From IMG/VR virus record IMGVR_UViG_3300024270_000002: a DNA stretch of 64,000 nt. One strand, given 5' to 3'. The stretch is from a virus (lineage: Duplodnaviria > Caudoviricetes). This document shows, one piece after another, positions 14,168 through 48,693 of the stretch; position 1 is the first letter of the stretch; the number at the start of each line of letters is the position of its first letter. The position numbers and the translations under genes were made by a program. Under the pieces are notes generated by a model, which was not told the origin of the DNA, did not search any database, and saw only the letters and a program-made list of their open reading frames with translations.

Positions 14168-14326
14168 AGTTATTAAAATAATAAATTAAGTTAAAATATT
14201 TACGCTAAATTAATTGAATGGGAAAATAGAGTTGCGAGAAGTAGACTCTAAAATAAATAATAAAATTTTTTAGAGCTTCTGAGAATACGGACTTTCTCGG
14301 AGGCTTCCTTAATATAAGGAGAATAT

Positions 14327-21057: not shown

Positions 21058-21120
21058 TAAATACATAAAAAATTACTGAGACAATTTCAAAAATTTCAAT
21101 TTTTTATTGTATAATATAAC

Positions 21121-21195
21121 ATAAGATGAAAATCTTGTAAACAAGTTTCCTCCTTTGTTTCGTGCGCCGGATGTTTCCTCCCGTCCGGCGCTATT
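21121..21195 (+). ncRNA. Candidate sRNA or structured leader with two GUUUCCUCC anti-SD loops
   Basis: Promoter at 21107; hairpins aagat-GAAA-atctt, aaacaa-gtttcctcct-ttgttt and gcgccggat-gtttcctccc-gtccggcgc. Confidence 0.65.
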
Positions 21196-21219
21196 ATTAT
21201 AATTTAAGGATTTTACAAA

Positions 21220-21588
21220 ATGCAAAATGTAGAAGCACAAGAACTTTTATTACAAATATTAGAACAAGCTCAAGAAGGTAAGGTTACTGAATTTCACCTT
21301 ATCATGACTATGAGTGAATGTAAATTTTACTACCGTCGGTACAGAGCTGATAAGCTGATTATTAGGACACTAAAGTCTGCTGCAAAAAGACTCTATAAGA
21401 CTTACTGTAAAGAGGTAAGAATAGGAACGGCAGATGCTGGTAAGCTATTTGCTTACGTACAGCTACAGGAAGTTATTAATTTCTACACGCGAGATCTTAC
21501 AACAATAAAACAGATGTTATCAGAATATGATGAATATCTAGGTCAGGGAAATTTTTGGTATTCTTTTTTGGGTGGCGAGAGACGATAA
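21220..21588 (+). CDS. Hypothetical protein
   Basis: ORF with an AAGGA RBS. Confidence 0.65.
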   Translation: MQNVEAQELLLQILEQAQEGKVTEFHLIMTMSECKFYYRRYRADKLIIRTLKSAAKRLYKTYCKEVRIGTADAGKLFAYVQLQEVINFYTRDLTTIKQMLSEYDEYLGQGNFWYSFLGGERR

Positions 21589-21601
21589 CAGGAGTTATAT
21601 T

Positions 21602-21826
21602 ATGGAACATTCATTAACAACTTTATTTCATGCTTATGCAGATCAGGAAAAGCCGCCGGTAATAGAACTTCTTAGTATAGATAAAAAGCCGGTGGGGGCA
21701 ATTTATTTTGATAAGTTAAGATATAAAAACTTTATAGTATCCGAAACAAACAACTCTGAAAAATATTATTTATATGTTGATGGTTTAGGAATTTATTTCT
21801 CATTTTATCAAAAAATAACACCTTAA
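21602..21826 (+). CDS. Hypothetical protein
   Basis: AGGAG RBS before ATG 21602. Confidence 0.6.
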   Translation: MEHSLTTLFHAYADQEKPPVIELLSIDKKPVGAIYFDKLRYKNFIVSETNNSEKYYLYVDGLGIYFSFYQKITP

Positions 21827-21842
21827 TTATCGTATAATACTA

Positions 21843-21932
21843 TAGGTGAGTGCGAGTATGTGGTGTCATTGGCATCTGGGGCGATGAGGTAAAACTCGTC
21901 GTCCCACCTCCTTTTTAGGGCCTTAACCTATT
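21843..21932 (+). ncRNA. Candidate structured RNA upstream of nrdD with CACCUCCUUU
   Basis: Promoter at 21830; GC-rich hairpin ggggcgatgag/ctcgtcgtccc; closing taggt/accta. Confidence 0.5.
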
Positions 21933-22005
21933 ATCGTAATTGGCTAAATTAAGTACAAGAGTTTCTACTCTTTAGACATAATATTTTAAAAGAAAGGTTT
22001 AATTT

Positions 22006-24228
22006 ATGCAAAGAGTTATTAAGCGTGATGGTCGCGAAGTTGACTTTAATAAAGCTAAGATTATTGAAGCAATTTCATGTGCTAATCAAGAAATTATTAA
22101 ATCAAAGCAGATCGGTCCGCGTAAGATTAATCAGCTTGCAAACATTGTAGAAGAGAAGTGCGCCGAGTATAAGAGAGCAATTAAGGTCGAAGACATTAAC
22201 GATCTTATTGAAGACGAACTTATCTTCCGAAATTACAACGATCTCGTTCGTGCCTTTATTAAGTATAGACATAATAAAGAGTTAGTTAGAAAGTCTAATA
22301 CTACCGATGATTCAATACTCAGTTTGATTAACCTCAGCAATGAGGAACTAAAGCAGGAGAACTCGAATAAGAATCCGGTCGTTAATTCTACTCAGAGAGA
22401 CTACATGGCTGGCGAAGTATCCAAGGATCTTACTCGCAGACTTCTTCTACCTAAGGATGTAGTGAAGGCACACGATGAAGGAGTACTTCATTTCCATGAC
22501 TCAGATTACTTCGTTCAGAAGATGCATAATTGTGATCTAGTTAATCTGGAAGACATGCTTCAGAACGGTACCGTCGTCAGTGGTACTCTGATTGAGAAAC
22601 CACACAGTTTCTCTACTGCCTGTAATGTGGCTACACAGATCATCGCACAGGTTTCTAGTAACCAGTATGGTGGACAGAGCATCACTCTCTCTCACCTGGC
22701 TCCATTCGTAGACATTAGTAGACAGAAGATCCGTAAAGAAGTAGAGGAAGAGCAGAGACTTGCCTGTAATAAAACATATAATATGAACTTAGTAGAGTTC
22801 TCGGATACAATGAAAGCTGTAATTGAAGAAATTACAGAAAAGCGAGTTCGAGCAGAAGTAAAGCGCGGAGTACAGACGATCCAGTATCAGGTTAATACTC
22901 TACTTACTACTAACGGTCAAGCCCCATTTATTACCGTCTTCATGTATCTCAATGAAGTAGAAGATAAGCAAACCAAGAAAGACCTGGCGATGATCATTGA
23001 GGAAGTTCTTCTTCAGAGATATGAAGGAGTTAAGAATGAAAAGGGAGTTTGGATTACCCCGGCTTTCCCGAAGCTCATCTATGTTCTAGAAGAAGATAAT
23101 ATCTACGATACCTCTGAGTACTGGTACCTTACCAAGCTTGCTGCTAAATGCTCAGCTAAGCGTTTAGTACCTGACTACATAAGTGAGAAGATCATGAAGG
23201 AGCTTAAGGATGGATACTGCTTCCCGGTTATGGGATGTAGATCTGCTCTTAGCCCTTGGTACGATGAAAACGGAAAAGCGAAATTCTACGGTCGCTGGAA
23301 TAAAGGAGTAGTTACTGTTAACCTTGTAGACGTAGCATGTAGTGCTGCAGGAGAAAATTATGCTAAGGACATGAATAGTTTCTGGAAGAACTTTGATGAG
23401 GTTCTTGAGCTCTGTCATAAAGCCTTGCTTTGCCGCTATGAGAGACTCAAAGGAACTGTCAGTGATGTAGCTCCTATTCTGTGGCAGCACGGTGCTATTT
23501 CTAGACTTAAGAAAGGTGAGACCATTGATAAGATGCTTACTGGAGGATACTCTTCTATTAGCCTAGGGTATGCCGGTTTGTGGGAGTGTGTAGTAGAACT
23601 TATCGGTAAGGATCTACTAACTGACGAAGGCCAGAAACTCGGACTTGAGATCATGGAACACATGAATAAGAAGTGTGATGAGTGGAACGCTGAGCTTAAC
23701 CTCGGGTTCGGAATCTATGGAACTCCTCTCGAGAGTACTACATATAAGTTCGCCAGATGTTTGCAGAAGAGATATGGCGAAATCCCAAGAGTTACAGATC
23801 GAAACTATATTACCAATAGCTATCACGTACATGTAGAGGCTCCGGTAGATCCGTTTAGAAAACTCGAGATTGAAGGTAAGTTCCAAAGATTATCTAAGGG
23901 TGGAGCGATCAGTTATATCGAGAGTGCTAATTTGGAAAATAATCTTGCAGCAGCCTTGACTGTAATTCGTTACATCTATGATAACATCATGTATGCGGAA
24001 ATTAACACTAAATCTGATTACTGTCAGAAGTGCGGTTGGGATAAAGAAATTAAGATTGTAGAAGATGATTCAGGTAAGCTGGTTTGGGAGTGCCCTAACT
24101 GTGGTAACAGAGATCAGTCTACTATGAATGTTGCTAGGAGAACTTGCGGTTATATCGGAACTCAGTATTGGAACGCCGGAAGAACTGAAGAAATTAAATC
24201 AAGATATGTTCATCTTGGTGGTAACTAA
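22006..24228 (+). CDS. nrdD: Anaerobic (class III) ribonucleoside-triphosphate reductase
   Basis: ATP cone (VIKRDGR), MGCRS, YITNSYH, CxxC...CPNCG and glycyl-radical RRTCGYIG motifs. Confidence 0.97.
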   Translation: MQRVIKRDGREVDFNKAKIIEAISCANQEIIKSKQIGPRKINQLANIVEEKCAEYKRAIKVEDINDLIEDELIFRNYNDLVRAFIKYRHNKELVRKSNTTDDSILSLINLSNEELKQENSNKNPVVNSTQRDYMAGEVSKDLTRRLLLPKDVVKAHDEGVLHFHDSDYFVQKMHNCDLVNLEDMLQNGTVVSGTLIEKPHSFSTACNVATQIIAQVSSNQYGGQSITLSHLAPFVDISRQKIRKEVEEEQRLACNKTYNMNLVEFSDTMKAVIEEITEKRVRAEVKRGVQTIQYQVNTLLTTNGQAPFITVFMYLNEVEDKQTKKDLAMIIEEVLLQRYEGVKNEKGVWITPAFPKLIYVLEEDNIYDTSEYWYLTKLAAKCSAKRLVPDYISEKIMKELKDGYCFPVMGCRSALSPWYDENGKAKFYGRWNKGVVTVNLVDVACSAAGENYAKDMNSFWKNFDEVLELCHKALLCRYERLKGTVSDVAPILWQHGAISRLKKGETIDKMLTGGYSSISLGYAGLWECVVELIGKDLLTDEGQKLGLEIMEHMNKKCDEWNAELNLGFGIYGTPLESTTYKFARCLQKRYGEIPRVTDRNYITNSYHVHVEAPVDPFRKLEIEGKFQRLSKGGAISYIESANLENNLAAALTVIRYIYDNIMYAEINTKSDYCQKCGWDKEIKIVEDDSGKLVWECPNCGNRDQSTMNVARRTCGYIGTQYWNAGRTEEIKSRYVHLGGN

Positions 24229-24332
24229 TTAAATTGATAACGTTTGTAATTATAGACAAAACCTGACATTTTGTTTATTTTTACAAACGTTATTTTTTTT
24301 TATTAGCCTACTAATATTTATTACAAAGGCTA

Positions 24333-24361
24333 TTTACAAATCTTACCAATTGTGTTATACT
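24333..24361 (+). promoter_or_regulatory. SigmaA-type early promoter TTTACA-N17-TATAAT/TATACT; other copies at 24795, 25996, 26218, 27052, 30838, 31802, 40756, 41756, 43739, 44408, 45092, 48491
   Basis: Invariant TTTACA -35, exact 17-nt spacer and a frequent TG-n extension. Confidence 0.85.
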
Positions 24362-24398
24362 ATACTTATAAGGTTAATAATTTTAAGGAGGTAGCATT

Positions 24399-24749
24399 AT
24401 GAGTATAGTAAAGGATTTATTAACTAAGGAAGAACAGAGGTCAGTACATAGAATGTTAGAGATTCTACCAGAGGATGCTCCTTTATGTTATGAGGTGTGG
24501 GCTATAGGTTATTATAATAGAAGAGTTACTGATACTACTTTCTTGCTTCGAGTCTTTACAGACCCGGAAGATGCTATAGAATACGCGAAGCTTGAAGCAC
24601 CGCAGGAACTCAGAAGAATCTTATTAGAAGCTGACTTAAGTACTTTTAATGCTGTTGCCCTTGAAGTCGAGACAGTTATTGATGACAACGAAGAAGGCAC
24701 TATAAATATTTGTACATTATATAAAAAGATGTTTATTATTAAATCCTAG
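24399..24749 (+). CDS. Hypothetical protein, paralog of 25384
   Basis: Shared YEVWAIGY...FxxPxxA...EVETV motifs. Confidence 0.75.
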   Translation: MSIVKDLLTKEEQRSVHRMLEILPEDAPLCYEVWAIGYYNRRVTDTTFLLRVFTDPEDAIEYAKLEAPQELRRILLEADLSTFNAVALEVETVIDDNEEGTINICTLYKKMFIIKS

Positions 24750-24857
24750 CTGAAAATGCTAGGATTTTTTATTAAACTCTGTTAGTTTTGTCGGTTTACA
24801 AATTCATTAAAATATGTTATAATATAAATGTAAGAAAAACAATGGAGGAAACTAAAT

Positions 24858-25097
24858 ATGGAAATTAAGAATGTTACGGAAGATATGGACTGGAGCGGCT
24901 GGCTGGTAAGACCTAAGTCTGAATGGCTTAATCCCGGAGAGGAAGCTCACCCTTATGTAGTTCTTGAAGACAGAGGTCCGAGAGTACTGATTCAGCTTCT
25001 TCCTCAGTATCAGCCTAAGAATCTTACCTTCCCTTGTGTAGAGTCCGGGCTTAAAGACTGGTATGAAGTAATTGATAAGGAGATTCAAACGAGATGA
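24858..25097 (+). CDS. Early hypothetical protein (candidate target of the 21121 sRNA)
   Basis: Early promoter at 24795; GGAGGAAAC RBS. Confidence 0.75.
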   Translation: MEIKNVTEDMDWSGWLVRPKSEWLNPGEEAHPYVVLEDRGPRVLIQLLPQYQPKNLTFPCVESGLKDWYEVIDKEIQTR

Positions 25098-25276
25098 AAC
25101 AGAAAGTACATATTATTAAAATGAAGAAACCCGATAACATCATTCAGGTTAAGATCGATATTACGACTGTTCCTTCTAAGGACAGAAAGTATTCGAGGCT
25201 CAGAAATAAAGCTCAGGTCTTTGACGACCGCCGTTTTCGTAAACCCAAATATAAGAAAAATTATTTGGATGATTAA
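25094..25276 (+). CDS. Small basic hypothetical protein
   Basis: ATGA overlap with the upstream gene. Confidence 0.6.
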   Translation: MKQKVHIIKMKKPDNIIQVKIDITTVPSKDRKYSRLRNKAQVFDDRRFRKPKYKKNYLDD

Positions 25277-25383
25277 TAATTTGTTTACGATGTGTTAGCA
25301 CATTTCGTGTCGGAATACGTTATAATATATTTGTAAGTTTAATAAACAAACTAACTACTTAATAATTTTTGGAGGAAGCAAAA

Positions 25384-25992
25384 ATGAATGTAAAAGAATT
25401 GTTTGAGAATAAGGAACTTATGGAATCTATCGTTGAGGACATTGACGAGCTTCCTGAAGATACTGAGGTTGTCTATGAAGTGTGGGCCATTGGTTATGAC
25501 AGTGAGGATGACTGCACTGAGGCAGAAGTTCTTGTCGGCGAGTTTGATAATCCTGACGAAGCAGTTGCCTGCGCAGATAAAGTAACTATCGAGCAGCTCA
25601 ATGAGATTGGTTACGAGTGCCCTATTCCCGGCACAGCTTACTTCTCTATCGAGGTAGAAACTGTTGTCGAAGATCCTGAAGACGAATGCGGCGGTACTAT
25701 GAATATCGGTACTGTCTACTCGAGAGACCTTTGGATCGATGGTGAATATGGTACTGACGAAGATGCTCCTGACTATGGAGATCCTGTTGTAGCAGTTGCT
25801 GAAGGTGATTATGAGCTTCTTGAAGATGGTACTCTTAAGCTGAGTGCTAAGTTCTTGAAGGGCTTTAATAAGAACGATACGATCAGAGTTCAGTTTATTG
25901 TGGAGCCTGATGTTGACTTGCTTCCTTATAAGATTATGTCTAAGGTAGAATACGCTGATGGTGATTATTACCATTGCGAATTGATGCTCTAA
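25384..25992 (+). CDS. Acidic hypothetical protein, paralog of 24399
   Basis: YEVWAIGY and EVETV motifs. Confidence 0.75.
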   Translation: MNVKELFENKELMESIVEDIDELPEDTEVVYEVWAIGYDSEDDCTEAEVLVGEFDNPDEAVACADKVTIEQLNEIGYECPIPGTAYFSIEVETVVEDPEDECGGTMNIGTVYSRDLWIDGEYGTDEDAPDYGDPVVAVAEGDYELLEDGTLKLSAKFLKGFNKNDTIRVQFIVEPDVDLLPYKIMSKVEYADGDYYHCELML

Positions 25993-26029
25993 GGGTTTAC
26001 AAAGCAATTCCTTCATTATATAATAAGAG

Positions 26030-26165
26030 AGTGTTCCAAACACAACCTATTATATTCAAACGTTATTCAGTAGGCTCATAAGGAAGAGCAGTGGCAGCAT
26101 CCTCATACTAATTACCTTAACTCCTTCAATCCCCCGAGTTAGCTCTTCCTTATGCTGTCTTCTAC
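26030..26165 (+). ncRNA. Candidate early sRNA with a C-rich loop
   Basis: Promoter at 25996-26024 with no downstream gene; 13-bp stem cataaggaagagc/gctcttccttatg enclosing taactc-cttcaatccccc-gagtta. Confidence 0.6.
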
Positions 26166-26288
26166 ATATTGCATAAAAACAAATAAAATAATTTTGAAAC
26201 TTCGGTTGTTTTGTCAGTTTACAAATCGGCCTTTTTGTGATATAATTATATACGTAAGAAACACGTACATATTTAGGAGGAAAAGAAT

Positions 26289-27020
26289 ATGTTTTACAAA
26301 ACCGGTGTTGACATTTCGAACGTAAAATCCATGTGGGAGTTCTTGCACAGTCACCCTACATACTCTACGATGAACTCGTGGAACGGACACAAGTCCATAG
26401 CACATAATGTTAAACTCTATAACCTCAATCTCGAAGGAGACTGGACGAGAGTTCTTAACTTCCTGCACGATGAAGCAGACTGCGGGCAGCTTCAGATGTT
26501 TATTTCTGATGAGATTTCTGAATTCAATAGAGCTAATCCTTGTTATAGAGCATGTTTCAACGGTCGCTCTAGCGGCTATCTCGTACTTTATAATAAAGAT
26601 AACTATCACACCGTTCTTCCTGATTGCCTCGGCTATGACTGCTATGAAGATTTTAAGGAAGATTACACCGGCTATGGTTACTCTGTCTCAGACTGTATGT
26701 ACGAACTCAGAGAGACCACTAAGTTGGTAAGAGAGTTCGACAAACTTTGTGACCGACTTAGAGACCTCGTGAACGGTTACTCTAAGGAGGATACCTTCGA
26801 CAAATGTAAACTCGAAGACGCTGTAGATAGATTCAATTATAACTACGGAGATGACCTTGACTCTCTCGACCTCGAAGGCCCTGAGGTAGAAGATGACCAC
26901 GTTAATCTGAATGATATCGCGTATTATGCCGCATTTATGGAATGCTTTGAGAATTGTCTCGGTGATGATAAAAGAAGAGCTTATACTAACAGTGATAAGC
27001 TTTATCTTAAGAAGAACTGA
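26289..27020 (+). CDS. Early hypothetical protein
   Basis: Promoter at 26218; AGGAGG RBS. Confidence 0.75.
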   Translation: MFYKTGVDISNVKSMWEFLHSHPTYSTMNSWNGHKSIAHNVKLYNLNLEGDWTRVLNFLHDEADCGQLQMFISDEISEFNRANPCYRACFNGRSSGYLVLYNKDNYHTVLPDCLGYDCYEDFKEDYTGYGYSVSDCMYELRETTKLVREFDKLCDRLRDLVNGYSKEDTFDKCKLEDAVDRFNYNYGDDLDSLDLEGPEVEDDHVNLNDIAYYAAFMECFENCLGDDKRRAYTNSDKLYLKKN

Positions 27021-27117
27021 GATTATTAACAATTTGTTTACATAAGAAGTATTTACAAATGTCTAATTTTGTGTTATAATGTAATATACTAAAGATTTTT
27101 TTTGGGGGAATATACTA

Positions 27118-27978
27118 ATGCTGAATGAAACTAAGAGAGACCTTACGATGCAGGCTCGCAAACTTGTGAAGCCTTATGAACAGTACACTATCGATGAACT
27201 CGCAGATGCTTATTGCGATGCTGTCGATACCAATAACGAAACTCTTAAAGATATTTATATCTCGGCGCTTATTCTGCGCTTCTGGTATACTATTGATAAG
27301 ATGTACAAGGCGAATACTGTAGCACCTTGCCTTGATTACGAGGATTTCTTTGAGTGGCTCTATGAAGCAATCGAGTACGCTTGTAAGTACAGAGGTTGGA
27401 GAGATCCTTCTAAGAATCTCAATGCTCAGCAGTGTATCAATAAGTGCATTGATACCATCAAGCTTCAGAAGTACTACGACCTTCGTCTTGATAAGCGTAA
27501 GGCTGTAAACTACTGTACCAGTATGGATGCTCCTATCGGCGGCGAGGGCGACGATGCCTCTAAAACCTTGGGAGACATTCTTGAGGATGAAGACGGTGGC
27601 TATGATTCAAGCACTGATGATGTTATCATGCTCGTTCAGAGTTATATCAACCGCAATAAAATTATCGAAGCAATCTTGATTGACAACATTGCATTCAATG
27701 ATGTGCAGAAGCATTTTAAGAAGGTTGTTAAGTCTGAGACCGTGGACGGTGAGACGTTCAGATACACCGAGCATAGCTCTGAGTTCTGGCCGTATAAGCT
27801 GGTTCAGATCGTAAGTAAGCTTCCGGCTACATATAAGAAGTCCTTTATGAAGCGTTATAACATTTCCGAAGAGAAGCTGTCCGCCGTACTCGGCGTGATT
27901 GATAAGTCTACGAATCAGAAACTGTATCGCTATCTTGAGTCCTGCCTTACTGAACTCAGGACTTCTTATGCGATGTAA
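27118..27978 (+). CDS. Phage-encoded sigma-70-like factor (regions 2-3 recognisable)
   Basis: LILRF...DYEDFFEWLYEAIEYA (region 2-like) and SMDAPIGGEGDDASKTLGDILED (region 3.2-like). Confidence 0.65.
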   Translation: MLNETKRDLTMQARKLVKPYEQYTIDELADAYCDAVDTNNETLKDIYISALILRFWYTIDKMYKANTVAPCLDYEDFFEWLYEAIEYACKYRGWRDPSKNLNAQQCINKCIDTIKLQKYYDLRLDKRKAVNYCTSMDAPIGGEGDDASKTLGDILEDEDGGYDSSTDDVIMLVQSYINRNKIIEAILIDNIAFNDVQKHFKKVVKSETVDGETFRYTEHSSEFWPYKLVQIVSKLPATYKKSFMKRYNISEEKLSAVLGVIDKSTNQKLYRYLESCLTELRTSYAM

Positions 27979-28039
27979 AATTGTTAGGCCGGCTTAAACC
28001 CCGGCCTTTTCTATTGTATAATATAATAAGAAATGAAAC

Positions 28040-28753
28040 TTGGAGGATTTCAAATTGTACCTTGACCTATTTGATGAACTAAGATTAAATAAAAAATTGG
28101 TTAAACTTGCCGGCTTTGAGGTAGCCGCTTACTGGGCTGAGCTTCAGAGTATTCTTAAACAGGTAGTAAAGAAGCAAACAGCCGATGAGAAAGGATTCTT
28201 TACTCTGGACCGAGATTATGTAGAAAGAGAAACAACTCTTACAGTAATGAAGCAGCTCAAGTGCGAGGAGAAGCTTATTACTATGGGAGTAGTAATGAAA
28301 GATCCGGATAATCCTAATAGACTTGCTATCAGTGTTACTAACATGGTAGAGATCATTACCGATGAGGATACCACTAAGCTTAAGAAGAAGTCTGCTAATT
28401 CTGCTGACGCTAAAGCCGCTAAGGTTGCTGGTATTAAAGCAACTATGAAGAAAGCTATCTTGGAAGATGACCTAGAACTTCGAGCAGCCTACGAACGTTG
28501 GGTAGATGGTATGATAGATGCTGAGAACTGTAGGTTTACTAAAGCAGTTGTTCAGGTGTTTGAGAAGACAGTTACGCAGTATACCACGGATAAAGCTCTG
28601 CGACTTAAGATTATTGAGATTGCTACTACTAATAGCTACAAGGACGCAACTTGGGCAATTAACAGAATCTACAACCCCGGAAAGTTTACGCAGACTGCCA
28701 CTAAGCTTCCTGAGCAGAAGATTTGCACCGGCGTTTCTAACGAAGTATTTTAA
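28040..28753 (+). CDS. wHTH replication-initiator/replisome-organiser-like protein
   Basis: GFFTLDRDYVERETTLTVMKQLKCEEKLITMGVV resembles the N-termini of phage initiators. Confidence 0.5.
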   Translation: MEDFKLYLDLFDELRLNKKLVKLAGFEVAAYWAELQSILKQVVKKQTADEKGFFTLDRDYVERETTLTVMKQLKCEEKLITMGVVMKDPDNPNRLAISVTNMVEIITDEDTTKLKKKSANSADAKAAKVAGIKATMKKAILEDDLELRAAYERWVDGMIDAENCRFTKAVVQVFEKTVTQYTTDKALRLKIIEIATTNSYKDATWAINRIYNPGKFTQTATKLPEQKICTGVSNEVF

Positions 28754-28765
28754 GGAGGACCTAAT

Positions 28766-29059
28766 ATGGAAAACTACGTATCGATTAAACTTTGTCCTAT
28801 CTGTGGCGAAGTGCCGGAGAAAACCACTCAGAGCCTTGAGGGGCCGAATGGCAGAGGTTACCGTGGCTGTTATGCTTACCAGTATAAGTGTGAGTGCTGT
28901 AAGTTGATCAAAGGGACAGAGGTTACTGACATCTATGAGTCCGCTCAAGCGGCACAGAACCGTGCTAAAGTTGAGTGGAATGTAGAAGTAGAAAGAGTAC
29001 AGGGTTTCCTTGACCGCCAGTATGTGCTCAGAACCCTCGTTGAAAATAACGTAATTTAA
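28766..29059 (+). CDS. Lar-like (restriction alleviation) Zn-finger protein
   Basis: KLCPICG...CxCC...AKVEWN pattern. Confidence 0.5.
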   Translation: MENYVSIKLCPICGEVPEKTTQSLEGPNGRGYRGCYAYQYKCECCKLIKGTEVTDIYESAQAAQNRAKVEWNVEVERVQGFLDRQYVLRTLVENNVI

Positions 29060-29149
29060 TTATTTACAATTTCGTAATAATTTTATAATATCCAGTTAAT
29101 ATCTTCCCGGTATAATATATATGTCAGAAAAACTTAGGAGGATTTAGTT

Positions 29150-32100: not shown

Positions 32101-32805
32101 AGACTAAGGAGGATAAAAATATGCGTTGTGCAAACTGTGAAAAAACCGGAGGAGAATTCCTTAAGACTGCTTACGGGGACTTTCTCTGTGAAGACTGCTG
32201 GGACGACTACATCTGTTCAGACGCCGGCAGACTTGAATACTTGATCGGCATCTGTTATGGTGAGCTTCCGCTGGAAGAGTTCGATGCAGACTTTCTTTAT
32301 GAAGTAGCGAAGAGCTACAGACTCAATTACGAGAAGCTTGACCTTACTGCTGAGCAGCTTACTGAGATCGAACAGAAGGCTATGGCCCTTGGAATTCTTT
32401 GAGGAGGAGCTTATGTCTACTAATAGCGGAATTGCTCTCAGAGCCGGTGAAACTTTTACTACTATCTATTGTCATTGGAATGGACATCCTAAGGATATGC
32501 TTCCCATTCTGATGGAGCACTATAATTCCTTTGAGCTCGCAAACAAACTCATCAGTATGGGAGATGCTTCTATCATTGAAGCAAAGATTGATCCTGATCC
32601 TGCGAAGCCCCACGACTTCGACAACTATCAAGAAGATGTATGTGTCTTCTATCATAGAGACAGAGGAGACGACTGGCTTAGTTGCCAACCTGCCTGCTAC
32701 ACAAAATCAGAATTGTTTAAGGTTCCGGCTTTTGATTACGTCTATATCTTCGAAGATGGAACTTGGAATGCATATAATATGAACGGAGGAAAAATTAAGG
32801 TATGA
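29150..32805 (+). other. Cluster of small, mostly early hypothetical CDSs (29150, 29380, 29733, 30066, 30906, 31106, 31865, 32121, 32413)
   Basis: Tightly packed + strand ORFs, most with a GGAGG RBS. 32413 carries the widespread phage IYCHWxGxP motif. Confidence 0.7.
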
Positions 32806-34109: not shown

Positions 34110-34177
34110 TAAATTATCAATTTAATAAATTATTAAATAACTGTACATTTATATATTTTACGAAAGAGGAACTTGCT

Positions 34178-35038: not shown

Positions 35039-35125
35039 TTAGAAAACTAACGGGTAAATTTAATGCTAAATTATTTAGTATTAAATTTACCCAAATTTTA
35101 ATAATAACGTAAGGAGATTATACTT

Positions 35126-35704
35126 ATGTCAGTAATAGAGAATTTTAATGTTTTATCAGAAACAGAGCTTGAGCAGTTTGCTGTAAAACTTTTGGAAAAG
35201 ATTAACTCTGAAAGTATCTTTATTTCAGATACAAAGTTTGAGTTATCTTTCGTGGAAACAAGTGACCTTACTGGTAACTTGTATATTGGTGTTGAATACG
35301 CTAAGTTTATTGATGTTCCGCGTGATGCATCTTGGCAAGTCGGAGATGAGGATGAAGCATATTCACCCGACCTTTCATACGTAGACTACTATGACACTAT
35401 CTCTGAGGACGCAAAGAAAGTATTTAAGACTCTTTCTACTGTTATCGATGGATACAAGGTTTCGGTAGAAATCGATGATGTATATGCAGAGGATGTCGTT
35501 GACATTGACGTTGATACAACTAGTCACGAAGATGGCGGTATTGGACATTATGAGTACTGGGGGGAATTTGGCTACGATTCACGTCCGTACGTAGAAGTCG
35601 AAGGTACTATAACTGCTGCGTGCAATATTATGTTTTCTTTTGTAGTTGAGCCTGAAACTACTGCACCTGAATCAGTAATTGACGACGAAACCGAAGAAAA
35701 CTAA
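35126..35704 (+). CDS. Acidic late protein, putative internal head protein
   Basis: GCTAAATTA at 35065; N-terminal VIE/LSE motifs. Confidence 0.55.
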   Translation: MSVIENFNVLSETELEQFAVKLLEKINSESIFISDTKFELSFVETSDLTGNLYIGVEYAKFIDVPRDASWQVGDEDEAYSPDLSYVDYYDTISEDAKKVFKTLSTVIDGYKVSVEIDDVYAEDVVDIDVDTTSHEDGGIGHYEYWGEFGYDSRPYVEVEGTITAACNIMFSFVVEPETTAPESVIDDETEEN

Positions 35705-35879
35705 ATAATAATAGAAGAGCTTTGAAACATCAAAAATTTCATAGCTCTTTTTTATTTGCAGTTTGTTTACAAAATATAACAAATTTCGTAACACATTATT
35801 TTTTAAGTGTGATATAATATATAATGTAAGAACGAATGAGTCTTACGTAATATTTATTTTACGAAAGAAGAAAAGGACA

Positions 35880-38800: not shown

Positions 38801-41800
38801 GAATAACAGAGCATTCGCCGCAATCAATGAAATGCGCCGAGGTATCGAAAACAGTCTTGGTTACAAAGAGCCTAGATTGCAGAACATCACTTTCGGTAAG
38901 ATGACTGTCTCAGTTGCTGAGATTGCTGCAGTTACGTTTAAGGAGTATTGATATGGTAAGTTATTGGAAAACACAGTGGTTTAATCTGGCTATGGCTCTC
39001 GGAGCTATAATTATCGTGATAGTTAATATGGTTCAGGGCGACGAGCTTATGGTAGTAGCTTGGACAGTTTCTTTTGTCTATTGGATGATCCTGTCTTATG
39101 TAGATTACAACGCAGAAAAAATCAAGTTGCTCGAAAAGAAACAGGAGAGAGATGATCAGATGTATGAACTCGTGCAGGAACTCGTAGCAGCAAACAAGAT
39201 CGACCGCGAGATCATGAAGAAGTATGAAGAAAGACTTAAGAAGTTGGAGGGAAAGAAAGATGTATTATACAGATAAGTATGTATTTCCGAATAAGTGGAC
39301 GGAAGAAGATTTCGAAAAGCTTCAAGCTTTGTGCGAGGAGTGTAAGAAAGAAAGGGCCAAGAAAAAGACTGTAGAACCTTGTCCGCAGTTTGAACCTAAG
39401 AAAGGAAACTAAAGATGAAACAGTTTCTTAAGAACTTGGGAACCGGCTTTCTGTTTTTCCTGCTCTCGTGCTGCAGCTCTTGTTTTGGCATAGCCGCGTA
39501 CTACGGGTTCGTCGCTATCTCAGAAACTTCAGGTTGGACAGCTATAGGTCTTTGCCTTGTAGCAGTAGTTATGACACTCACAATGGGATTCCTTATCTAC
39601 TGCATGGGACTCATTCCTAATGATACTGTAGAAAGACTCAAGTGTAAGATTACAGAGCTGGAGGAAAAAGAAAATGATTAAGTATGAATTCCCCTGTTAT
39701 CCCGGAGATGACGTATGGTACATAGAGCTCTACAATGGAAAGGCCCTCACCTTGGGAAAAGATAAGGTACAGATGGTTGGCTTCTCCACTCGAAGTGTGC
39801 AGATTAAGCTTCGAGGTCACCAGAGCTTTAACAAGACTCATACTTGGGGCAAGACTGTCTTCGCTACTGAGGAAGAGTGTCGAGCCGCTTATGAAAAGCT
39901 TAAAGCAGAAAAAGGAGAACTGCGATGATTAAACCCACTGCTCAGCTTCTTGAGGAAGCTAAAGAAGATCTACAAGAGATTATAGACTACGTAGCAGCAG
40001 AGACTGCTGATGTAAGTCTTTTGCTCTGGCTGCAAGATCTGGAACTTAAGTTCGGTACTATCTATCGCAGACTCTCTAATCCTATTACACAACAGAAAGG
40101 AAATTAAGATGGAATTTATTGGAGCAGCAAGAAATGTTAGAGAACTTAAGGCACTTCTCATGAAGGTAGAGCCGACTGCTACTATTACTTTCAGTGGGAC
40201 TGATGAAAACTCTTCTAATGTAGAACTCTGGTATGATGAAGAAACAAATGATTTAACTTTGCTGTAAGGAGACAAACTATGAAATACTTTAAGGTAACTA
40301 ATGTTGATGACACTGAAGACGAGTTCTACGTTAGCTCGACTCTACCTAACGAAACTCCGTGCCATCTCGCTATGACTCTTAATCTCGGAGAGGGAGACGG
40401 AAGATACGATATTGTCGAGGTAGACAAAGAAGAGTTTGATCGTGAAACAGAAGAAGATGAGTCAGATTTATATGATCACTTTCGTGAAGTACAAGAAGCG
40501 ATTCCTTTCTTTTCTCGCTATGATGAGGAAGGCGACTGGTATGACTATGATGGTGATGACAGTGATTGTTACTAATAAAAGTATTTAACATAGAACAATC
40601 TAGAATCTTCTCTATCATACATAGTTATTAGGCTTATAAAACATATTAGAAGTTTATTTAAATATGATACAGATAAACCTTGGCTGGCTACGGTCAGCCT
40701 TATTTTATTAGTAGATTTGTTTAGATAATTAAGTAATCTTTGTGCAGTATTACTGTTTACAAAATAAAATAAACTTTGTATAATGTATTCATAATATAAA
40801 TAAGGAGGACTACATATTATGAATGTAAAGCTTCGTCAGGTTATTACATCACCAATGAGAACTATCCTTGCAGTTCGCGCGGCATTTGATTACTGTGAGA
40901 ATGTAGATGATATTAAAGAAGTTATTAAAAAGATTCCACCTAAGTTTGGTGCGTTCAAACTTCTGACAGTATATGAAGATGAGCATTACTTCATTATACA
41001 GAATCTTTTTGAAAAGAACGGTGAGATGCATTCTCAAGTAGTATCTCATGATTTCTATGATGTAAAGGAGGATTACTATTATGACTTCGGAAGAAAAGCT
41101 TAACATGTATCGAGAGAAGAAACAGTTTATTGAAAACCTAGGCTACGCATTTCAAGTAAGACCCGGCTGTGCTTCCGTAGAAGGTGTCGAATATGAAGTC
41201 TATCAAAAACTTTATATTGATGTTATGGACTTTCGTGAATGGATTATTGTACACTATACTGGTGGCGGTAGAGCTATGAAGATCGTAAGCGGTAATAGTA
41301 ATGCTGCTAACTTTGTAGTAATCGGTTCTATGCTGCATGGCGGCTGCTACGAACAAGTGCGTATATATGAAGAGCAGTCTGAGCATGGTTATGAAAAGGT
41401 GAAGCTATGATACTAGAAGAAGATAGACTTATATTACATGATCTAAAAGGAGTCAACTTACGGGTTGGCTTCTTCTTAGGTACGCGGCAGGAACTGCTAA
41501 AGGATACTAAGTGCATACACTACTCTATCTGCTGGGATACTGTAGATGTTAGGGTGGATCAGATCACCCTCTCTGAAGAACTACTGGAGCTAGACTTCTT
41601 CCACGTTACGCAGCAACTAGTAATAGACGATCATGTGATTGCCGGAGAGGTAATTGATTTCAGATGTGAGAAGGTTAATGGGCTTCTTACAGCTTCTTGT
41701 ACAATACTACTAGGACGAGACTATTAAATTTCTGAAACTTTGTGTAATTTGTCAGTTTACAAAATGAATAAAATGTGTTATAATATATATGTAATAAAGA

Positions 41801-43187
41801 TTAAGGAGGACAGAAAGAATGTCTGAAAATGAGAAGTATCCTATTAAAGAAGAGTGGGAAGAATACTACAAAGTGCTCGAAGGTATCAGAAGAACCGGAG
41901 TCTGTAATATGTTCGGCGCTTCGCCTTACCTGAAGGAGTTCTGCCCTGAACTTTCTGAGAAAGAGTCTCAGGAGATTCTTTGCAACTGGATTCATAACTA
42001 TGATGCCTTGAACGAAAAGTACGGCTGGAGGAATTAAGCTATGAAGGTTATCTCTACTACTGATCTTTCTCGACCTGGAAATGATTGTTATATCTACGAA
42101 TCAGTTTCTTTGGTAGAGCAATTCGAGCTCTTCTCTGTGATTCGTTACTGGAGAGTTACAGGCTGGTCAGACCGAGAAGAAGTTTCTGTGCTATATACTT
42201 CGCTTTCACGAAGCTCAGCAGCAGAAAGATATAAAAGCTACGGCGGAAAAATTTAAATAAAAGAAAGGATTACATATACAAATGAATACTACTAATAATA
42301 CTATCAAGAACCTCGCTGAATGGATCGAAAGCTTGAAGCAGTTTGCAGAAGGTGATCACGAACTTCTTATCTCTTGGTTTAAGGATACTAAAGACAAACC
42401 TTTCTCTATCGTCGGTGGTTGGCAGAAGATGTTTAAGGAAGACTACTCAGATCTCTTCTGCTGTAGTAAGTCTCAGCCTGAGTATGTGATGTGTGTTAAG
42501 ATCGTAAAGAACGAAGGACCTTACGCTTACACAGACTTTGATACTATGAACATGCCGACAGATTCTTTCGGCAATGTAGACGACACCTGCATCCCTCTCG
42601 AGTGGGACGACTCTGCAGATGCTGCCGCTGCCTTCTTTCTTTGTGAGTGGGAAAGAATCATGGCGGAGTACGAGGAGGACAGAGAATGAGCAATTGGCTT
42701 ACTGAAGCAGTTGCACGCGAAGCCGCTTATGATGAAGGCTACGAAGCCGGTAAGCTTTGCGCTGCACAACAGATCTTAGATGACCTCGAAGAAGTTATTA
42801 AGGAGAAACGAGAAGGGTATAGACAGACTCGGGAAAAGCATAAGTCAATAGATTACCACGAGAGCTATAGCTATTGGCTTGGTCGTGGACTAACCTGTGG
42901 CGAGATCCTTATGCTGCTGACTGAGCTTAAAAAGAAATATGGAATAGACTAAGAGTCTAAGTAATTGATATCGTATAATAAAATATAAAAACAAAAGGAG
43001 AATAAAAATTATGTTTGGAAAATATGAAACTTGGAAGATTGTTTACGTTCCTACTATTATGAATAATGGAGCAAGAGGTGTTGCTCTTGTAGAAGCCGTA
43101 GATAGACAACATGCAATGAATCAGTTTCAGCAGCAATACACCGGGCAGTTCCATACAGTAGAGTCCTGCACTAAGCTGCTCGGCTAA
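35880..43187 (+). other. Dense array of about 25 small hypothetical CDSs (e.g. 35880, 36186, 36584, 36897, 37201, 37670, 38044, 38265, 38724, 39415, 39674, 39925, 40109, 40279, 40819, 41081, 41407, 41819, 42041, 42282, 43011)
   Basis: Abutting or overlapping + strand ORFs with RBSs, punctuated by early promoters. Confidence 0.7.
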
Positions 43188-43241
43188 AAAGAATTTAGGG
43201 AGTAGTATCAAAATTTAGAAAATAATGCCGTATAATATTAT

Positions 43242-43476
43242 AGAACAGAACGTTGCGAGGGTTACGGTGCGTTTGATACTTAGGTATATTTCTTTTCTTT
43301 CTTCTCTTTTCACCTCCCTCCTTTTTCGAAAAATAAGTGTGTTCATATAAGACCACTCGCAGCGTTCGTTCGCCTCCTTCGTTTGTCATAATAAAAGTAA
43401 ATAAGTTCGGATGCCTCCTTTCTAAAGTTAATTTTATCTTATTTCTTTTAAGACCGTTGCTGCGGTCTTTTTCTTT
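43242..43476 (+). ncRNA. Candidate sRNA of about 230 nt with three anti-SD tracts and its own terminator
   Basis: Promoter at 43228; stem gaacgttgcgag/ctcgcagcgttc; CACCUCCCUCCUUU, GCCUCCUUC and GGAUGCCUCCUUUCUA tracts; terminator aagaccg-ttgctg-cggtctt plus T tract. Confidence 0.7.
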
Positions 43477-43509
43477 TTATATCGTATAATATAATAAAGG
43501 AGAATACTA

Positions 43510-46500
43510 ATGAGTAGATACGTTATTTATTACAGTACCAGGAAGTGTATGTTCAGAGACCTCGCGAGTACCTGGAAAGCTTGGGCAGAAGAAGCTCACT
43601 TAGATGAAAGCCAGCTAAGAGGAATGTCGCTCTTCTTCCGGCATATAGGAAGAAGATTCGGGTTAATAAATGAATTCAAAGATATTGGTGTTATCTAAAT
43701 GTTTACAATTTGGTAATAACTTTTTTTTGAAAAAGGGTTTTACAAATTATGGAAAACATGTTATAATAAATACATAAGAAATAAGAACGACAAACTAAAA
43801 AAATTAGAAGGAGATTGAATTATGTTTAACACAAAACTTATCGACAAGTTCTACGAAGCTTTATTCTGTACTGACTTTAAAGATTATACGAGCGCAACAC
43901 AAAATGAAAAAACGGACTGTCTCTCCGAATGTAAAGATTTTGATGAGTGGCTTGATAGACTTATTAATGTCTTTGCAGATGAAGAAGAAGTTAATGCTGT
44001 AGAGGTTAGAACCGCAGCACTCGCAGACAAGAAGTTTATTGAGACAATGAAAGCTGAGTATGAAGAGCTTCTTGAACTCTGTGACGATGAAGATGATGAA
44101 GAAGATTTCAACGATGAAGATTAAGGAGAACAACATATGTTTTATTACACAGTAGAATCCAGTCACTGGCCGATGAACCTCGAGTTCAAATCCACTATTG
44201 AGATGAAGGAAGGACAATGCTTCAGAATCCTTTCTCACAGTAATCTCATTAAGAACTATCCTACTAGATTTAAGGTATTGAGTGTTTCGGATACTCCTAC
44301 CTTCTCTGGTCCGATAGTAGAGATTACCGATGTAGACTTTAATGTCGAAACCTTTTAATTAAATAAGAGTGCACGGGAAACTATTAAAATCCAGTGCACT
44401 TTTTCTATTTACAAATATCGGTAAATGGAGTATAATATAAATATAAAATAAAAGAATGTGAGGCATTTAATATGGAAAGAAATGGAAAGACTTTTATTAT
44501 TGTAACAGATGATTTCTTAACTAAAGATGTTTTCTTAACCTTTAAGGATTCTGACCTAGGCTGCACGACAGTAGATTGGTTAGAAGAAATGATAGAGTAT
44601 GATTTCTCGGATACCATCGAAGAGGCTCTACATAAAGCAGAGCAGGCGAATAGCATGACTCTCGGCGGCTGGCCAAGTCCTATGAAGATCACTGAAGTAC
44701 TTAACTTTAACTCTGCTTTCACCGGCGACGAAGAACCTGAACTTAAAACAGTTAGAACCCTTACTTTCCATAGATAATTTGCTTAGATACAAAAGATAAA
44801 GTATAAAATAAAAAGTGAGGTATATAATATGAAGACGGGAAGACTTAAAGAATTATGTTTATTGGTTTGGGCTCTATTAACTGATGAGGAAAAGGAAGCC
44901 TACTTCTACGGAACCGGAACTATCGAGTTTATAGAAGATGTCGCTAAACTATTTAGTATAGAAGCTGGTGAGCTTTCAGAAGAATTTATTGACGAAGTAG
45001 CAGAACAGCTTTAATAGCTACATAAGAGTCGTATAATATTATGCGGCTCTTTTTTATTTGTAAACAATTTATTAACAACTCATCAAAGGGGTTTACAAAA
45101 TAAGAAATGTATGGTATAATATAAATAGAATAAATCAGGGAGGATTACATAATGCTTAAGATAATCAGAGAAAGAAGACCCCTTAAGTTCAGAGACTATA
45201 CAATCGAATATAGATACAAGGATGATCCTGAAGCTGGCTTCACCTTTCCTGCTACTTGCCACGGTGACCCAGATTTCTCCTGTATGGGCCGAGAGATGTT
45301 GGCTAACTACGAAGCTTGCCTCACTGATAAACGGCTGACAGAGGGAGAATTTACTAAGCACGAATGGACCTATATGGAACCGGCTCTTGGTATCTGCTCT
45401 TGTGGTAAGGAACTTACCCTCGACTGTGACCATGCCGGAGCTGTACAGTGCGAGTGCGGAAAGTGGTACAACCTGTTCGGTCAGTCACTTATTGATCCTA
45501 AGTACTGGTACAGAGATGAAGATGACTACTACTCTGATATGGAGGATTAACTAATGACTTACTATCACGGAACATCGATAGCGGGACTTACTGAAATTCT
45601 TCCTCCAGTGGATACAGCTGTACTGAGAGAAGATTTTAGAAAGAAGTTTTTAGATTGTGTATTTGTTACACCTCTCAAAAAGTCTGCAGAAGCTTATGCT
45701 AGAAAGTGTGCTTCTAAATTCGGTGGCAAGCCTGTAGTATATGAAGTAAAACCAATTAATCCAATTGAGATAAATGTGTCTCAGTACATTTGTGATAAAG
45801 CTTTGGTAATACGGGAGGTTTAAATGTATAAGCTAGAACTTACAGAAGAAGAACTACAGTTTCTGCATGATAGATGTGTCAGCAAGATTGCAAGACTAGA
45901 AGAAGCACACCTTGAGGATGTCCCTTGCTATCGTTTATCTTGGCAGGTGTTGCATAAGATTTATGAAGCTCGTGGTTTAAAGAATACTACAGAGGAGAAG
46001 TTTTAAGATGAAGATTAAGTTTATAACCTTTAGACCTTGCTATGGCGGAGTATATGGTGTTGTAGTTAAGGATACTGCTACAGTGTTAAATGAGTGGTTA
46101 GAAGAAAATCCTGATGTAGAAATCGTCAGCTGGCAAACTACTCCGGTAGGAGCAGAAAACGAACTTTATATTACTATTCAGTACAAGGAGCAGGAGGACT
46201 GACTATGGATACTAAGCAGATGTTAAAAGACGGCTTTAAAAAGAAGCAGGTAGCTTTACTTATCTATAAGGATAGCTACAACGGAAAAGAACATATCGTA
46301 GTAGTTGATACTCCGGAGCATGCGAAAGAATATAAGACCTCAGAAACTATGAGGCTTGCTACTATGTATATTAAGGAGAATTGATATGAGAGCAAATGAA
46401 AAGAAGATGATTCTACACTATCTACATGTCGCTCATAATGATTGGTTAGCCGCAAAGCTACTGGGTAAACAGCAACCCAGATCTTCTCAGTTTCCTACCA

Positions 46501-48482
46501 TTAGTCAGGAAGAGGTGGCAGCCTATCGTGAGTTTAATACTCTGCGTCACCTAGCTGATGACCTTGGGATTTCCCATCCCTATGACTTTTGTGAAGGAGA
46601 TTAACTTATGGCTTATGTCTTGAAACTTACTGACCAGCAGTATTCCGGTTTTACTTATATAAGTAAAGGAAGTATCTTGAGTCATGGAAGACACGGCTTC
46701 TTTCTCGAGGACTCTGTATTTGAAACTGCCGGAGAGGCAGTAGACCATATTCAGACTTGTCTGGAGAGCGGTTGGTACCGGACTGATATCACCCCCGCGA
46801 ACTTTGAAGTAGTTGAGGTTAATCTGTATCCTGAGATTGACCCTTACTTCTATTACACAAAAGATGAGGCTGAAAGATTTAAGAATCTTAATTAAGGAGT
46901 TTTACAAATGACATTTGAATTTATGTATGGAGATACCTGGTATAAGTATGAAGATGGAAAGATCATTCAGCAGTGCTCAGATGGAACCTATAGCGAGTGG
47001 GCTGAACCTGTATGTCCGGTAGTTATAGAACTTCAGAATCAGATGGGAGCTATTCCAGAAGATGTAAGACCTGTAGTTATGCAGGGGCTTCTGCACGCTT
47101 ATGGCTACGGTATCATAGACGGAAAGAATAAAAAGATTGCTGAGTTTAAAAGAGTATTTAAGTTAGACTAAGGAGGAAGCGATGTATCCAAGAAGAGTAA
47201 CTTTTAGCTTTGAGCTAGATAAGAAAGCAATGACCCATCTGAAAGAAAGATCGAGTTATAATCATAATTACTATGAGCTTGACCTAAATGCTTACGGGGA
47301 TTATATCCTTGCAGAGAAGTGTAATATCCTGTACGAGGAATGTAATGACAGCGACTTCTATGCTTACTATTCCCTGGGATACTTCGAAGGAGATAAGTTC
47401 CAGCCTATGTTTACTTGGCTCGATGAATGTAAGAACTTAGATTTTATTATGGAGTAACCTATTATGAATATGAATTATGCACAACTTAAGTTCCCGCCAT
47501 ATGAGTGGCTTAAGAAGCTTTCTCTTACTGAGAAGTATACTTATGTAGACAGAGCTACAGGAGAGGGGCATGAAGAAGAAACATATAAAGAATATGAGTT
47601 TACTCTCTTCACAACCCCGACAGATGTATATGGCAGATTTACTTATAATGAAGATGACTCTCATATGATCTACTTCGATGTTATGGAAGATGGATACTGT
47701 GATCATAATAACCTAGGTAAGCGATTTAAGTTTAATAAGAAGGATTATAAAGCAGCTTGCGAGTATGCTCAGAAGATCTATAATGAATTCCAGAGATACT
47801 TGTTTGCAGATCAGTCCTGGCAGTGGGCTGTTACGCCGGAAGAATACTACAGGGAGCATACTAACTAATATGAATATCTCAGAAGAGCTTAAGCAGGAAC
47901 TCGGTAATGCTATCGCAGCTTACGGTAAGATTCTACACTCTGCTTTCTTAGGTGCTCAAGTGTCACCTGAGTTTGAGAAGCTACATAATTGTTCTGAGGA
48001 AGAGCTGAAACATAAGATGCAAATTCTTAAGGACTTTTATAATCAGTTATAATTAGGAGGATACGTCTATGGATAAGATGGAACAAAAGGAACTCGCAGT
48101 AAGGTGTCTGGAGATGCTTGATATCTACAAACCCTATATCAGAAAGTTTAAGTCTAAGGTAGGAACCCCTTGCTTCTTTGAACAGTTCGCCGGCTTCTGG
48201 GTAGATCAGGAACCTGAGATTTATAATAAGATGAAGGAAGTAGAAGAGGAGTATGGCTGTCTTGTTTATGCGCTAACTCATGAGATTACTGACTTAGGCG
48301 AAACCTGGTCTATGCTCTGTGTACCTGAGAGTGCAGAGAGTATTGAAGATGTTATCGGATCATTTAATCAGCGTGAGTTCTATGCTTTCTCTTATACCTG
48401 GAATAAGACTAATCCTATGTTCTCTGAGTTCGGTGATATAGTAGTCATGGCTCGGTTCGGTGGCATTAAGAGAGTACACTAA
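43510..48482 (+). other. Array of small hypothetical CDSs (43510, 43822, 44137, 44472, 44829, 45152, 45824, 46008, 46205, 46386, 46608, 46908, 47182, 47464, 48069 and others)
   Basis: Packed + strand ORFs with RBSs and early promoters. Confidence 0.7.
45554..45823 (+). CDS. Small ADP-ribosyltransferase-fold protein (Arr-like)
   Basis: YYHGTS...VFVT...AxAYA...VYEVxP motif order. Confidence 0.55.
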   Translation: MTYYHGTSIAGLTEILPPVDTAVLREDFRKKFLDCVFVTPLKKSAEAYARKCASKFGGKPVVYEVKPINPIEINVSQYICDKALVIREV

Positions 48483-48522
48483 AAAATATATTTACAAACC
48501 TTTCTTACTGTGATATAATAAC

Positions 48523-48650
48523 TCTGGACTAATGCTTATCCAGATCATATTAATGTCGCATTGAGAAGGGAGGTAGGTACTTTTATATTAATAATTGAAT
48601 AGCTGTCTTTTGTTTATTACCGGTCAACTAAAAGTGGCCGGTAATTTTTA
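48523..48650 (+). ncRNA. Candidate early sRNA with an orphan SD-like AAGGGAGGU
   Basis: Promoter at 48491-48519; 5' hairpin tctgga/tccaga; terminator taccggtca/tggccggta; no properly spaced start codon. Confidence 0.5.
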
Positions 48651-48693
48651 TTGCTAAATTAGGTAGCATATATATTATTGCGAGGTATAATAA

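Follow-up and report, generated by a model that had tools for sequence, protein, structure and literature searches.

The 64,000-nt stretch of DNA analyzed here (the window) covers, on the reverse strand, one half of the 127.8-kb IMG/VR virus record IMGVR_UViG_3300024270_000002 (Duplodnaviria; Caudoviricetes; G000), a genome whose completeness is 55% according to CheckV. Nearly all genes of this genome are located on the + strand and most of its proteins belong to no PHROG or Pfam family; a search of PHROGs and Pfam with 20 neighbouring proteins left nearly all of them unassigned. A preliminary description of the window proposed that five intergenic units, four of them carrying anti-Shine-Dalgarno (anti-SD) tracts, constitute a temporally staged system of small RNAs (sRNAs) that occlude Shine-Dalgarno (SD) sequences. 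All five units do exist and a promoter-like −10 box was found for each of them. A terminator scan identified terminator-like hairpins in four units (21164-21191 in unit 1, 21877-21906 in unit 2, 43450-43469 in unit 4 and 48616-48645 in unit 5) and no terminator in unit 3. The present analysis retains two of them, unit 1 (21121-21205) and unit 4 (43242-43478), as two well-supported new RNA families, irrespective of their function.

Megablast against GenBank phages gave no match and no close relative. The units were compared with a 91-kb relative showing ~78% nucleotide identity and reached through its helicase (G001), with a 220-kb relative, 96% complete, reached through the RNA motifs (G002), and with ~20 further related contigs retrieved from metagenomes by a pattern that includes both motifs of unit 1. 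Relatives anchored on NrdD (51 loci, ~59% identical) were also considered and set aside for this purpose because of their distance and of the lack of synteny upstream of nrdD. The clade carrying units 1 and 4 is composed of large (~220 kb) uncultured phages. The NrdD protein of the window (22006-24228) is nearest to that of gut phages of Clostridia-type hosts, from which we infer that the host of this clade is probably a member of the Bacillota.

Unit 1 is preceded by a promoter (TTGTATAATAT, 21107-21116, with a −10 box at 21110-21115) that has no −35 box and belongs to a class named here class M; the sequence T[TC]GTAT[AT]ATATAA is kept upstream of unit 1 in 25 of 25 homologues. The minimum free energy (MFE) folds of five variants delimit a first hairpin of 7 bp (21121-21138), a second hairpin (21139-21160) whose weak A-U stem exposes the loop UUUCCUCC at 21146-21153, and a third one (21164-21205) that is the intrinsic terminator found by the scan. 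The GC-rich stem of the latter (21164-21191) carries an 8-nt loop of the form (N)UUCCUCC, again UUUCCUCC in the window (21174-21181), and is followed by a U-rich tail. In the alignment of 25 distinct sequences, 94.7% of the cells pair (39-55% in slid controls) and 14 of the 24 pairs change on both sides, a number equalled by none of 500 shuffles. The terminator hairpin shows compensatory changes in nine of its ten stem pairs and hairpin 1 shows changes on both sides in four of its seven pairs, with 96% of the cells paired; hairpin 2 (91% paired) displays little covariation and the sequence flanking its motif, ACAAGUUUCCUCCUUU, is identical in G001.

The loops of unit 1 follow the pattern (N)UUCCUCC(C/A/U) across homologues, and both UUCCUCC loops are present in each of the 25 variants, all of which come from related phage contigs. 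When five variants were folded singly, CCUCC was found in the terminator loop of all five, and the first CCUCC was located in the loop of hairpin 2 in three of them and was single-stranded in the other two. Three checks free of the bias introduced by a search with both motifs gave the same picture: G001, located via its helicase, carries unit 1; all eight viral contigs fetched by the first motif alone carry the UUCCUCC of the second loop; and a search with an alignment of the protein encoded downstream returned the same seven contigs, all seven of which carry the RNA. This protein found no relatives when used as a single-sequence query, the alignment query succeeding later. A covariance model of unit 1 detects exactly one copy per genome. 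The scan of bacterial genomes yielded only chance matches in unrelated metagenome-assembled genomes and therefore provides neither a host clue nor a chromosomal homologue. Unit 1 is conserved, structured and non-coding and appears, from its sequence features, to be a real RNA gene of this clade of large phages.

The gene located immediately downstream of unit 1 (21220-21588) lacks a separate promoter and its SD is weak. It encodes a 122-aa all-helical protein that has 21 homologues of 122-128 aa, 34-61% identical to the protein of the window, and unit 1 precedes the gene in every homologue with enough flanking sequence. AlphaFold predicts three long helices with a predicted local distance difference test score of 91. 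The protein has no match in Pfam, PHROG or PDB, and its fold, a helical bundle of a generic kind for which PDB offered nothing informative, was discarded as a clue to function. As no promoter is found between the terminator of unit 1 and the ATG, expression of the gene needs read-through. None of the 22 genes has GGAGG as SD and the mRNA that carries unit 1 as its leader includes no internal GGAGG; a pairing in cis of the loops of unit 1 with a GGAGG of their own mRNA was therefore rejected, there being no such site.

Unit 4 (43242-43478) is preceded by a −10 box of class M (43231-43236) that is conserved in the G002- and G004-type homologues. Only three diverged variants represent this unit (those of the window, of the G004 type and of the G002 type), and their MFE folds share the same architecture. 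A first stem, P1 (~43248-43263 with 43351-43371), encloses a long pyrimidine-rich loop that carries CACCUCC and includes CACCUCCCUCC (43311-43321); a linker with a CCUCC at 43373 separates it from a second, invariant stem, P2 (AAAAGUAAAUAAG with CUUAUUUCUUUU), which encloses CCUCCUUUCUAAA (43414-43426); the terminator (43450-43469) ends the RNA. The P1 and terminator stems covary, the arms of P1 (11-13 bp) being wholly different between variants yet complementary. The preliminary description counted CCUCCUU three times in this unit. Anti-SD tracts are indeed present, as CACCUCC, CCUCCUU and CCUCCUUUCUAAA; the count is of four CCUCC copies in each variant, and 11 of the 12 copies are fully unpaired in the folds, the remaining one, in G004, having three paired bases. 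The invariant CCUCCUUUCUAAA matches, over 12 nt, the 3′ end of Bacillus-type 16S rRNA together with the rDNA immediately downstream, and CCUCCUUUCUAA of unit 4 corresponds to the 16S tail of Bacillus subtilis plus the next rDNA bases (PMC5732282). Unit 4 has no match in Rfam. It is followed by a fresh promoter and therefore stands alone; judged from its sequence features and their conservation in three lineages, it appears to be a real promoter-to-terminator small RNA gene.

The whole 127.8-kb genome contains 23 CCTCC on its + strand, nine of which are intergenic. Seven of these nine are located in units 1, 2 and 4 (21149, 21177, 21907, 43313, 43317, 43373 and 43414). The two others are found at the sole minus-strand gene nearby (10678-11232), whose SD accounts for them. 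Similarly, intergenic CCTCC in the 220-kb genome of G002 are restricted to the homologues of units 1 and 4 and to tRNA genes, bar one at 210177 that lies in coding-like sequence within a gap of a crude gene calling. Apart from tRNAs and the SD of one minus-strand gene, the units account for every intergenic + strand CCUCC of the genome. In dinucleotide shuffles, the two CCUCC copies of unit 1 had P = 0.007, and those of each unit 4 homologue, four in number, had P ≤ 0.0002. Units 1 and 4 share a design in which the stems drift by compensatory change and the CCUCC motifs (two and four copies, respectively) stay fixed and single-stranded. These motifs are the only strongly conserved single-stranded element of both RNAs and are unpaired in nearly every independent fold, providing the accessible seed against RBSs (ribosome-binding sites) expected of an SD-occluding sRNA. 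Promoter and terminator signals are present and conserved in both units, at the level of the sequence.

Two classes of promoters distinguish the five units. Class M (T[TC]GTAT[AT]ATATAAT without −35 box) drives units 1, 2 and 4, and class E (sigma-A-like, TTTACA-17-TATAAT) drives units 3 and 5 and is clustered in the region of small ORFs (open reading frames) located at 24-49 kb. Temporal staging, which had been part of the original proposal, is no more than hinted at by the fact that the units with CCUCC share class M and that units 3 and 5 depend on class E. The silencing of defence genes, likewise part of that proposal, found no support. GGAGG is the SD of 61 of the 186 phage genes. A full GGAGG SD is found in 50-56% of the genes located ≤2.5 kb downstream of class E promoters compared to 25-27% elsewhere; this enrichment holds for G000 as well as for G002 (Fisher p = 0.009 and 3e-5).

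The best explanation for units 1 and 4 is, in our opinion, an occlusion of SD sequences in trans by their exposed CCUCC, to which we would give a probability of about 0.45. Their RNAs would pair with GGAGG SD sequences and compete with the 30S subunit, thereby lowering the translation of mRNAs with a strong SD. The likeliest targets would be host mRNAs and the phage's own class E genes, which are sigma-A-type and presumably early; in the latter, full GGAGG SDs are about twice as frequent as elsewhere in the genome. Such an enrichment is compatible with early mRNAs of strong SD being silenced by RNAs that belong to a later class, but does not prove it. Units 1 and 4 could in this way be an RNA counterpart of the shut-off of early mRNAs by RegB of phage T4, and unit 1 could double as the 5′ leader of the helical-protein gene, reached by read-through of its terminator. 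A version of the mechanism that we hold only tentatively, and consider doubtful as formulated, is that multi-site mimics of the 16S tail expressed from a non-early promoter class mask strong GGAGG sequences on mRNAs of the host and on early mRNAs of the phage, or sequester a factor recognizing the 16S tail, and so shift initiation towards middle and late genes with weak SDs.

Several observations weigh against an occlusion in trans. When the whole RNAs were paired with the start regions of 186 phage genes, their duplex energies did not surpass those of shuffled RNAs, and no specific target with above-chance complementarity was found among the phage start regions scanned. The best specific match, between hairpin 2 of unit 1 and the RBS of gene 24858 (16 of 17 nt), is not significant, composition-matched templates equalling it in 13% of trials (P ~0.13), and the leaders of G002 and G004 that resemble that of 24858 precede another gene. 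RNAs acting through a generic CCUCC would also strike the late genes of the phage itself and must outcompete abundant ribosomes. Furthermore, the metagenome homologues of unit 1 were fetched by a pattern with both motifs, so that the conservation of these motifs is partly due to construction; unit 1 always occurs together with its downstream gene, as would also be expected if it acted in cis only; and unit 4 is absent from the syntenic place in G001, of which only 42% of the genome is available.

Under such a cis role, unit 1 would be only the 5′ leader or attenuator of the helical-protein gene, with its CCUCC loops forming a sensing or protein-binding surface that sets read-through or translation, and unit 4 could be a decayed or duplicated version of it. 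The linkage of RNA and ORF is strict (seven of seven protein-based matches carry the RNA and all homologues with flanking sequence carry the ORF), the gene depends on read-through in the absence of a promoter between terminator and ATG, and its SD, always weak and AGGA-like, could pair with the UCCU of hairpin 2 in one alternative fold. However, the complementarity to this SD extends over just 4-5 nt and is not kept across variants, two identical and invariant loops exceed the needs of an attenuator, and unit 4 cannot be a leader because its own terminator is followed by a fresh promoter. We consider this explanation unlikely, albeit a serious one. A second serious rival, less probable still, is that the RNAs mimic the 3′ tail of 16S rRNA as decoys of which several copies would titrate a protein, such as a host toxin or defence RNase cutting the anti-SD, a nuclease maturing the rRNA 3′ end or a pyrimidine-binding ribosomal protein. 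Removal of the anti-SD by toxins is known, as with mycobacterial MazF and RelE. The conservation goes beyond what is needed for SD pairing, CCUCCUUUCUAAA and UCACCUCC of unit 4 matching the Bacillus-type tail GAUCACCUCCUUUCU and the following rDNA, and unit 4 repeats its sites several times and includes an extended tract of pyrimidines. Nevertheless, the loops of unit 1 match the 5-7 nt core only, the extended conservation rests on three variants of unit 4, and no candidate partner protein was identified.

The units could also be a mixture of terminators, insulators and leaders in which CCUCC was inherited by chance within a narrow clade. This description holds for units 2, 3 and 5, and all homologues come from one phage clade and are hence related sequences; for units 1 and 4, it is very improbable, because the stems surrounding the motifs are fully turned over and the motifs are not, because of the shuffle statistics given above, and because CCUCC is found elsewhere in the intergenic + strand DNA of two genomes only at tRNAs, at one SD of a minus-strand gene and at one likely coding site. 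Finally, the preliminary description had itself envisaged that the tracts could be RBSs of translated ORFs on the minus strand; they would then be the GGAGG SDs of small ORFs, for example of type I toxin-like peptides. The window does contain some minus-strand ORFs over units 1 and 4 (21073-21240, 43195-43389 and 43215-43346). Yet no ORF of at least 18 aa is common to the homologues of units 1, 3 or 4 on either strand, in the relatives the minus-strand GGAGGs have no start codon at a suitable spacing, the substitutions keep RNA stems intact and not codons, and the promoters and terminators are on the + strand, which makes this explanation scarcely credible. Two of the checks that had been suggested, the conservation of the CCUCC loops in relatives and the search for minus-strand ORFs, do not refute units 1 and 4: the loops persist across relatives and no minus-strand ORF does.

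An occlusion of SD sequences in trans by units 1 and 4 can be compared to several known systems. The C-rich loops of the Firmicutes sRNAs RNAIII and RsaE/RoxS pair with SD regions and block initiation. Units 1 and 4 resemble these sRNAs (hairpins H7, H13 and H14 in the case of Staphylococcus aureus RNAIII) in their unpaired C-rich loop motifs, including one in the terminator loop. They differ from them in carrying a full CCUCC mimic of the tail in place of UCCC or CCCC motifs and in being phage genes, whereas RNAIII and RsaE/RoxS are host-encoded regulators. No Rfam family, RsaE/RoxS and RNAIII included, was detected at gathering level in the whole window, and the search around units 1, 2 and 4 gave only chance-level matches, with neither RsaE/RoxS nor RNAIII at E ≤ 5. 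The RegB endoribonuclease of phage T4 inactivates early mRNAs through their GGAG SD sequences. The silencing of strong-SD early mRNAs proposed here on the basis of sequence follows the same logic, except that RegB is a protein nuclease and that the effector would here be RNA pairing.

The closest likeness is with the cuckoo RNAs of Alphaproteobacteria (CcsR1-4/RSs0680a-d, alpha-r14/NfeR1; Rfam ar14, RF02344), whose defining design consists of hairpin loops with an anti-SD-like motif and which show two to four adjacent hairpins with covarying stems and conservation of the anti-SD-like loop only (PMC4615179). For motifs of this kind, as in RNAIII, repression by pairing to the RBS has been discussed (PMC4615179). 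Units 1 and 4 likewise consist of adjacent, freely covarying hairpins in which only the loop motif is conserved. In addition, CcsR RNAs share a transcript with the gene of a small protein (PMC8034643), and unit 1 is also tied to such a gene; the protein encoded at 21220-21588 could be a partner of the unit 1 RNA, by analogy with CcaF1 for the CcsR RNAs. However, units 1 and 4 are not members of the cuckoo family, because both the model score and the loop motif fail: the ar14 covariance model is the best Rfam match of unit 1 with only 19.8 bits (E = 1.7) for a gathering score of 58.8, and the loop motif is CCUCCUCCC in cuckoo RNAs compared to UUCCUCC in unit 1. Furthermore, cuckoo RNAs are located in the 3′ untranslated region of a protein gene on alphaproteobacterial chromosomes, whereas unit 1 lies 5′ of a gene that does not encode a DUF1127 protein, in phages with Bacillota-like signals.

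Known phage regulatory RNAs are almost all target-specific antisense RNAs of temperate phages (PMC12197685). Among them, the c4 antisense RNA of phages P1 and P7 blocks translation by pairing of loop-exposed sequences around an RBS (PMC12197685); it differs from units 1 and 4 in acting on a single specific target (ant), in lacking a generic anti-SD motif and in belonging to temperate enterobacterial phages. Neither our literature searches nor the review of phage sRNAs (PMC12197685) revealed a phage RNA built from exposed anti-SD motifs. If the proposed mechanism is correct, no sRNAs mimicking the anti-SD would have been described for a virulent phage before units 1 and 4, which would do with RNA alone what RegB does in T4. 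They would represent a new and simple viral way to sort classes of mRNAs by SD strength and a compact and portable tool for the global control of translation in Gram-positive hosts. Both families are suited to Rfam and to the mining of metatranscriptomes, unit 1 being represented by 25 sequences with strong covariation.

The three other units do not belong to the same system, and the idea of a coherent set of five members has to be abandoned; likewise, among the four units said to carry anti-SD tracts, conservation of these tracts concerns units 1 and 4 only in full, and the SD-occluding design does not extend beyond these two. Unit 2 (21833-21916), analyzed by alignment of 14 relatives, is composed of a class M promoter, a short and variable leader and a terminator (21877-21906) located upstream of nrdD. 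Its hairpin covaries in the 14 relatives. Its CCUCC is found in one of the 14, the window phage; it belongs to the tail CCUCCUUUUU, which is the U tract of the terminator and is just U-rich elsewhere. A conserved GCTAAATTA motif and then a second hairpin separate this terminator from nrdD. Promoter, GC-rich hairpin, U tract and conservation upstream of a gene are all those of an intrinsic-terminator leader, and the sequence features indicate that unit 2 is a terminated leader or attenuator-type element preceding nrdD and not an anti-SD RNA.

Unit 3 begins with a class E promoter (TTTACA-17-TATAAT, 25996-26024), followed by a long hairpin (26077-26154) whose 13-bp arms (26077-26089 and 26142-26154) enclose a variable pyrimidine-rich interior. 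These arms are wholly different and nevertheless complementary across four lineages. The CUCCU/CCCCC tract is partly conserved and is missing from G002. The likely role of unit 3 is that of a hairpin for processing or stability within an early leader. Unit 5 (48491-48655) includes a class E promoter (48491-48519) present in the window and in G002 and absent in G001, a variable transcript of ~100 nt with GGGAGG at 48568-48573, and a terminator (48616-48645). The terminator and the TTGCTAAATTA motif that follows it are its only conserved parts, the interior being unconserved. As initially noticed, it carries no anti-SD tract: unit 5, a short transcript of poor conservation, has the SD-like GGGAGG and no CCUCC. 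The AGGGAGGU sequence of this unit (48568-48575) is complementary over 8 nt to ACCUCCCU of unit 4 (43312-43319), and the corresponding tracts of the G002 homologues also look complementary. This complementarity may reflect a sponge pair or chance.

The TTGCTAAATTA motif is a third conserved intergenic motif, found at 21943-21956, 48650-48662, ~7640, ~14200 and ~58770 and in the other half of G000, usually directly downstream of a terminator, with a start codon 40-60 nt further on. It probably represents a third promoter class, which possibly serves a phage sigma factor; a sigma-like gene is located at 27118-27978. The copy at 21943-21956 on the + strand (GCTAAATTAAGTAC; class L), between the terminator of unit 2 and nrdD, is a probable second promoter whose core, GCTAAATT, is invariant before nrdD in 14 relatives. 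An early-promoter cassette, GTTTTGTCAGTTTACAAA-N17-TATAAT-ATAnATGTAAGAAA, is repeated ~12 times over 24795-48519 of the window (for example at 24795, 26218, 30840, 31800, 41760, 43739, 44408, 45092 and 48491) and is also present at the ends of G002; full GGAGG SDs are enriched among the genes that follow it. Three long stretches of the window (13923-14326, 15735-16628 and 18687-19069) are devoid of credible ORF according to a crude gene map, as well as of Rfam match or tRNA. A terminator-like hairpin at 45024-45051 holds the core of a class M promoter (CGTATAATAT) in its loop. Lastly, several distant gut phages (L042-L047) have an NrdD match that extends over ~3.2 kb rather than 2.2 kb, which suggests an intron or intein inside their nrdD gene.

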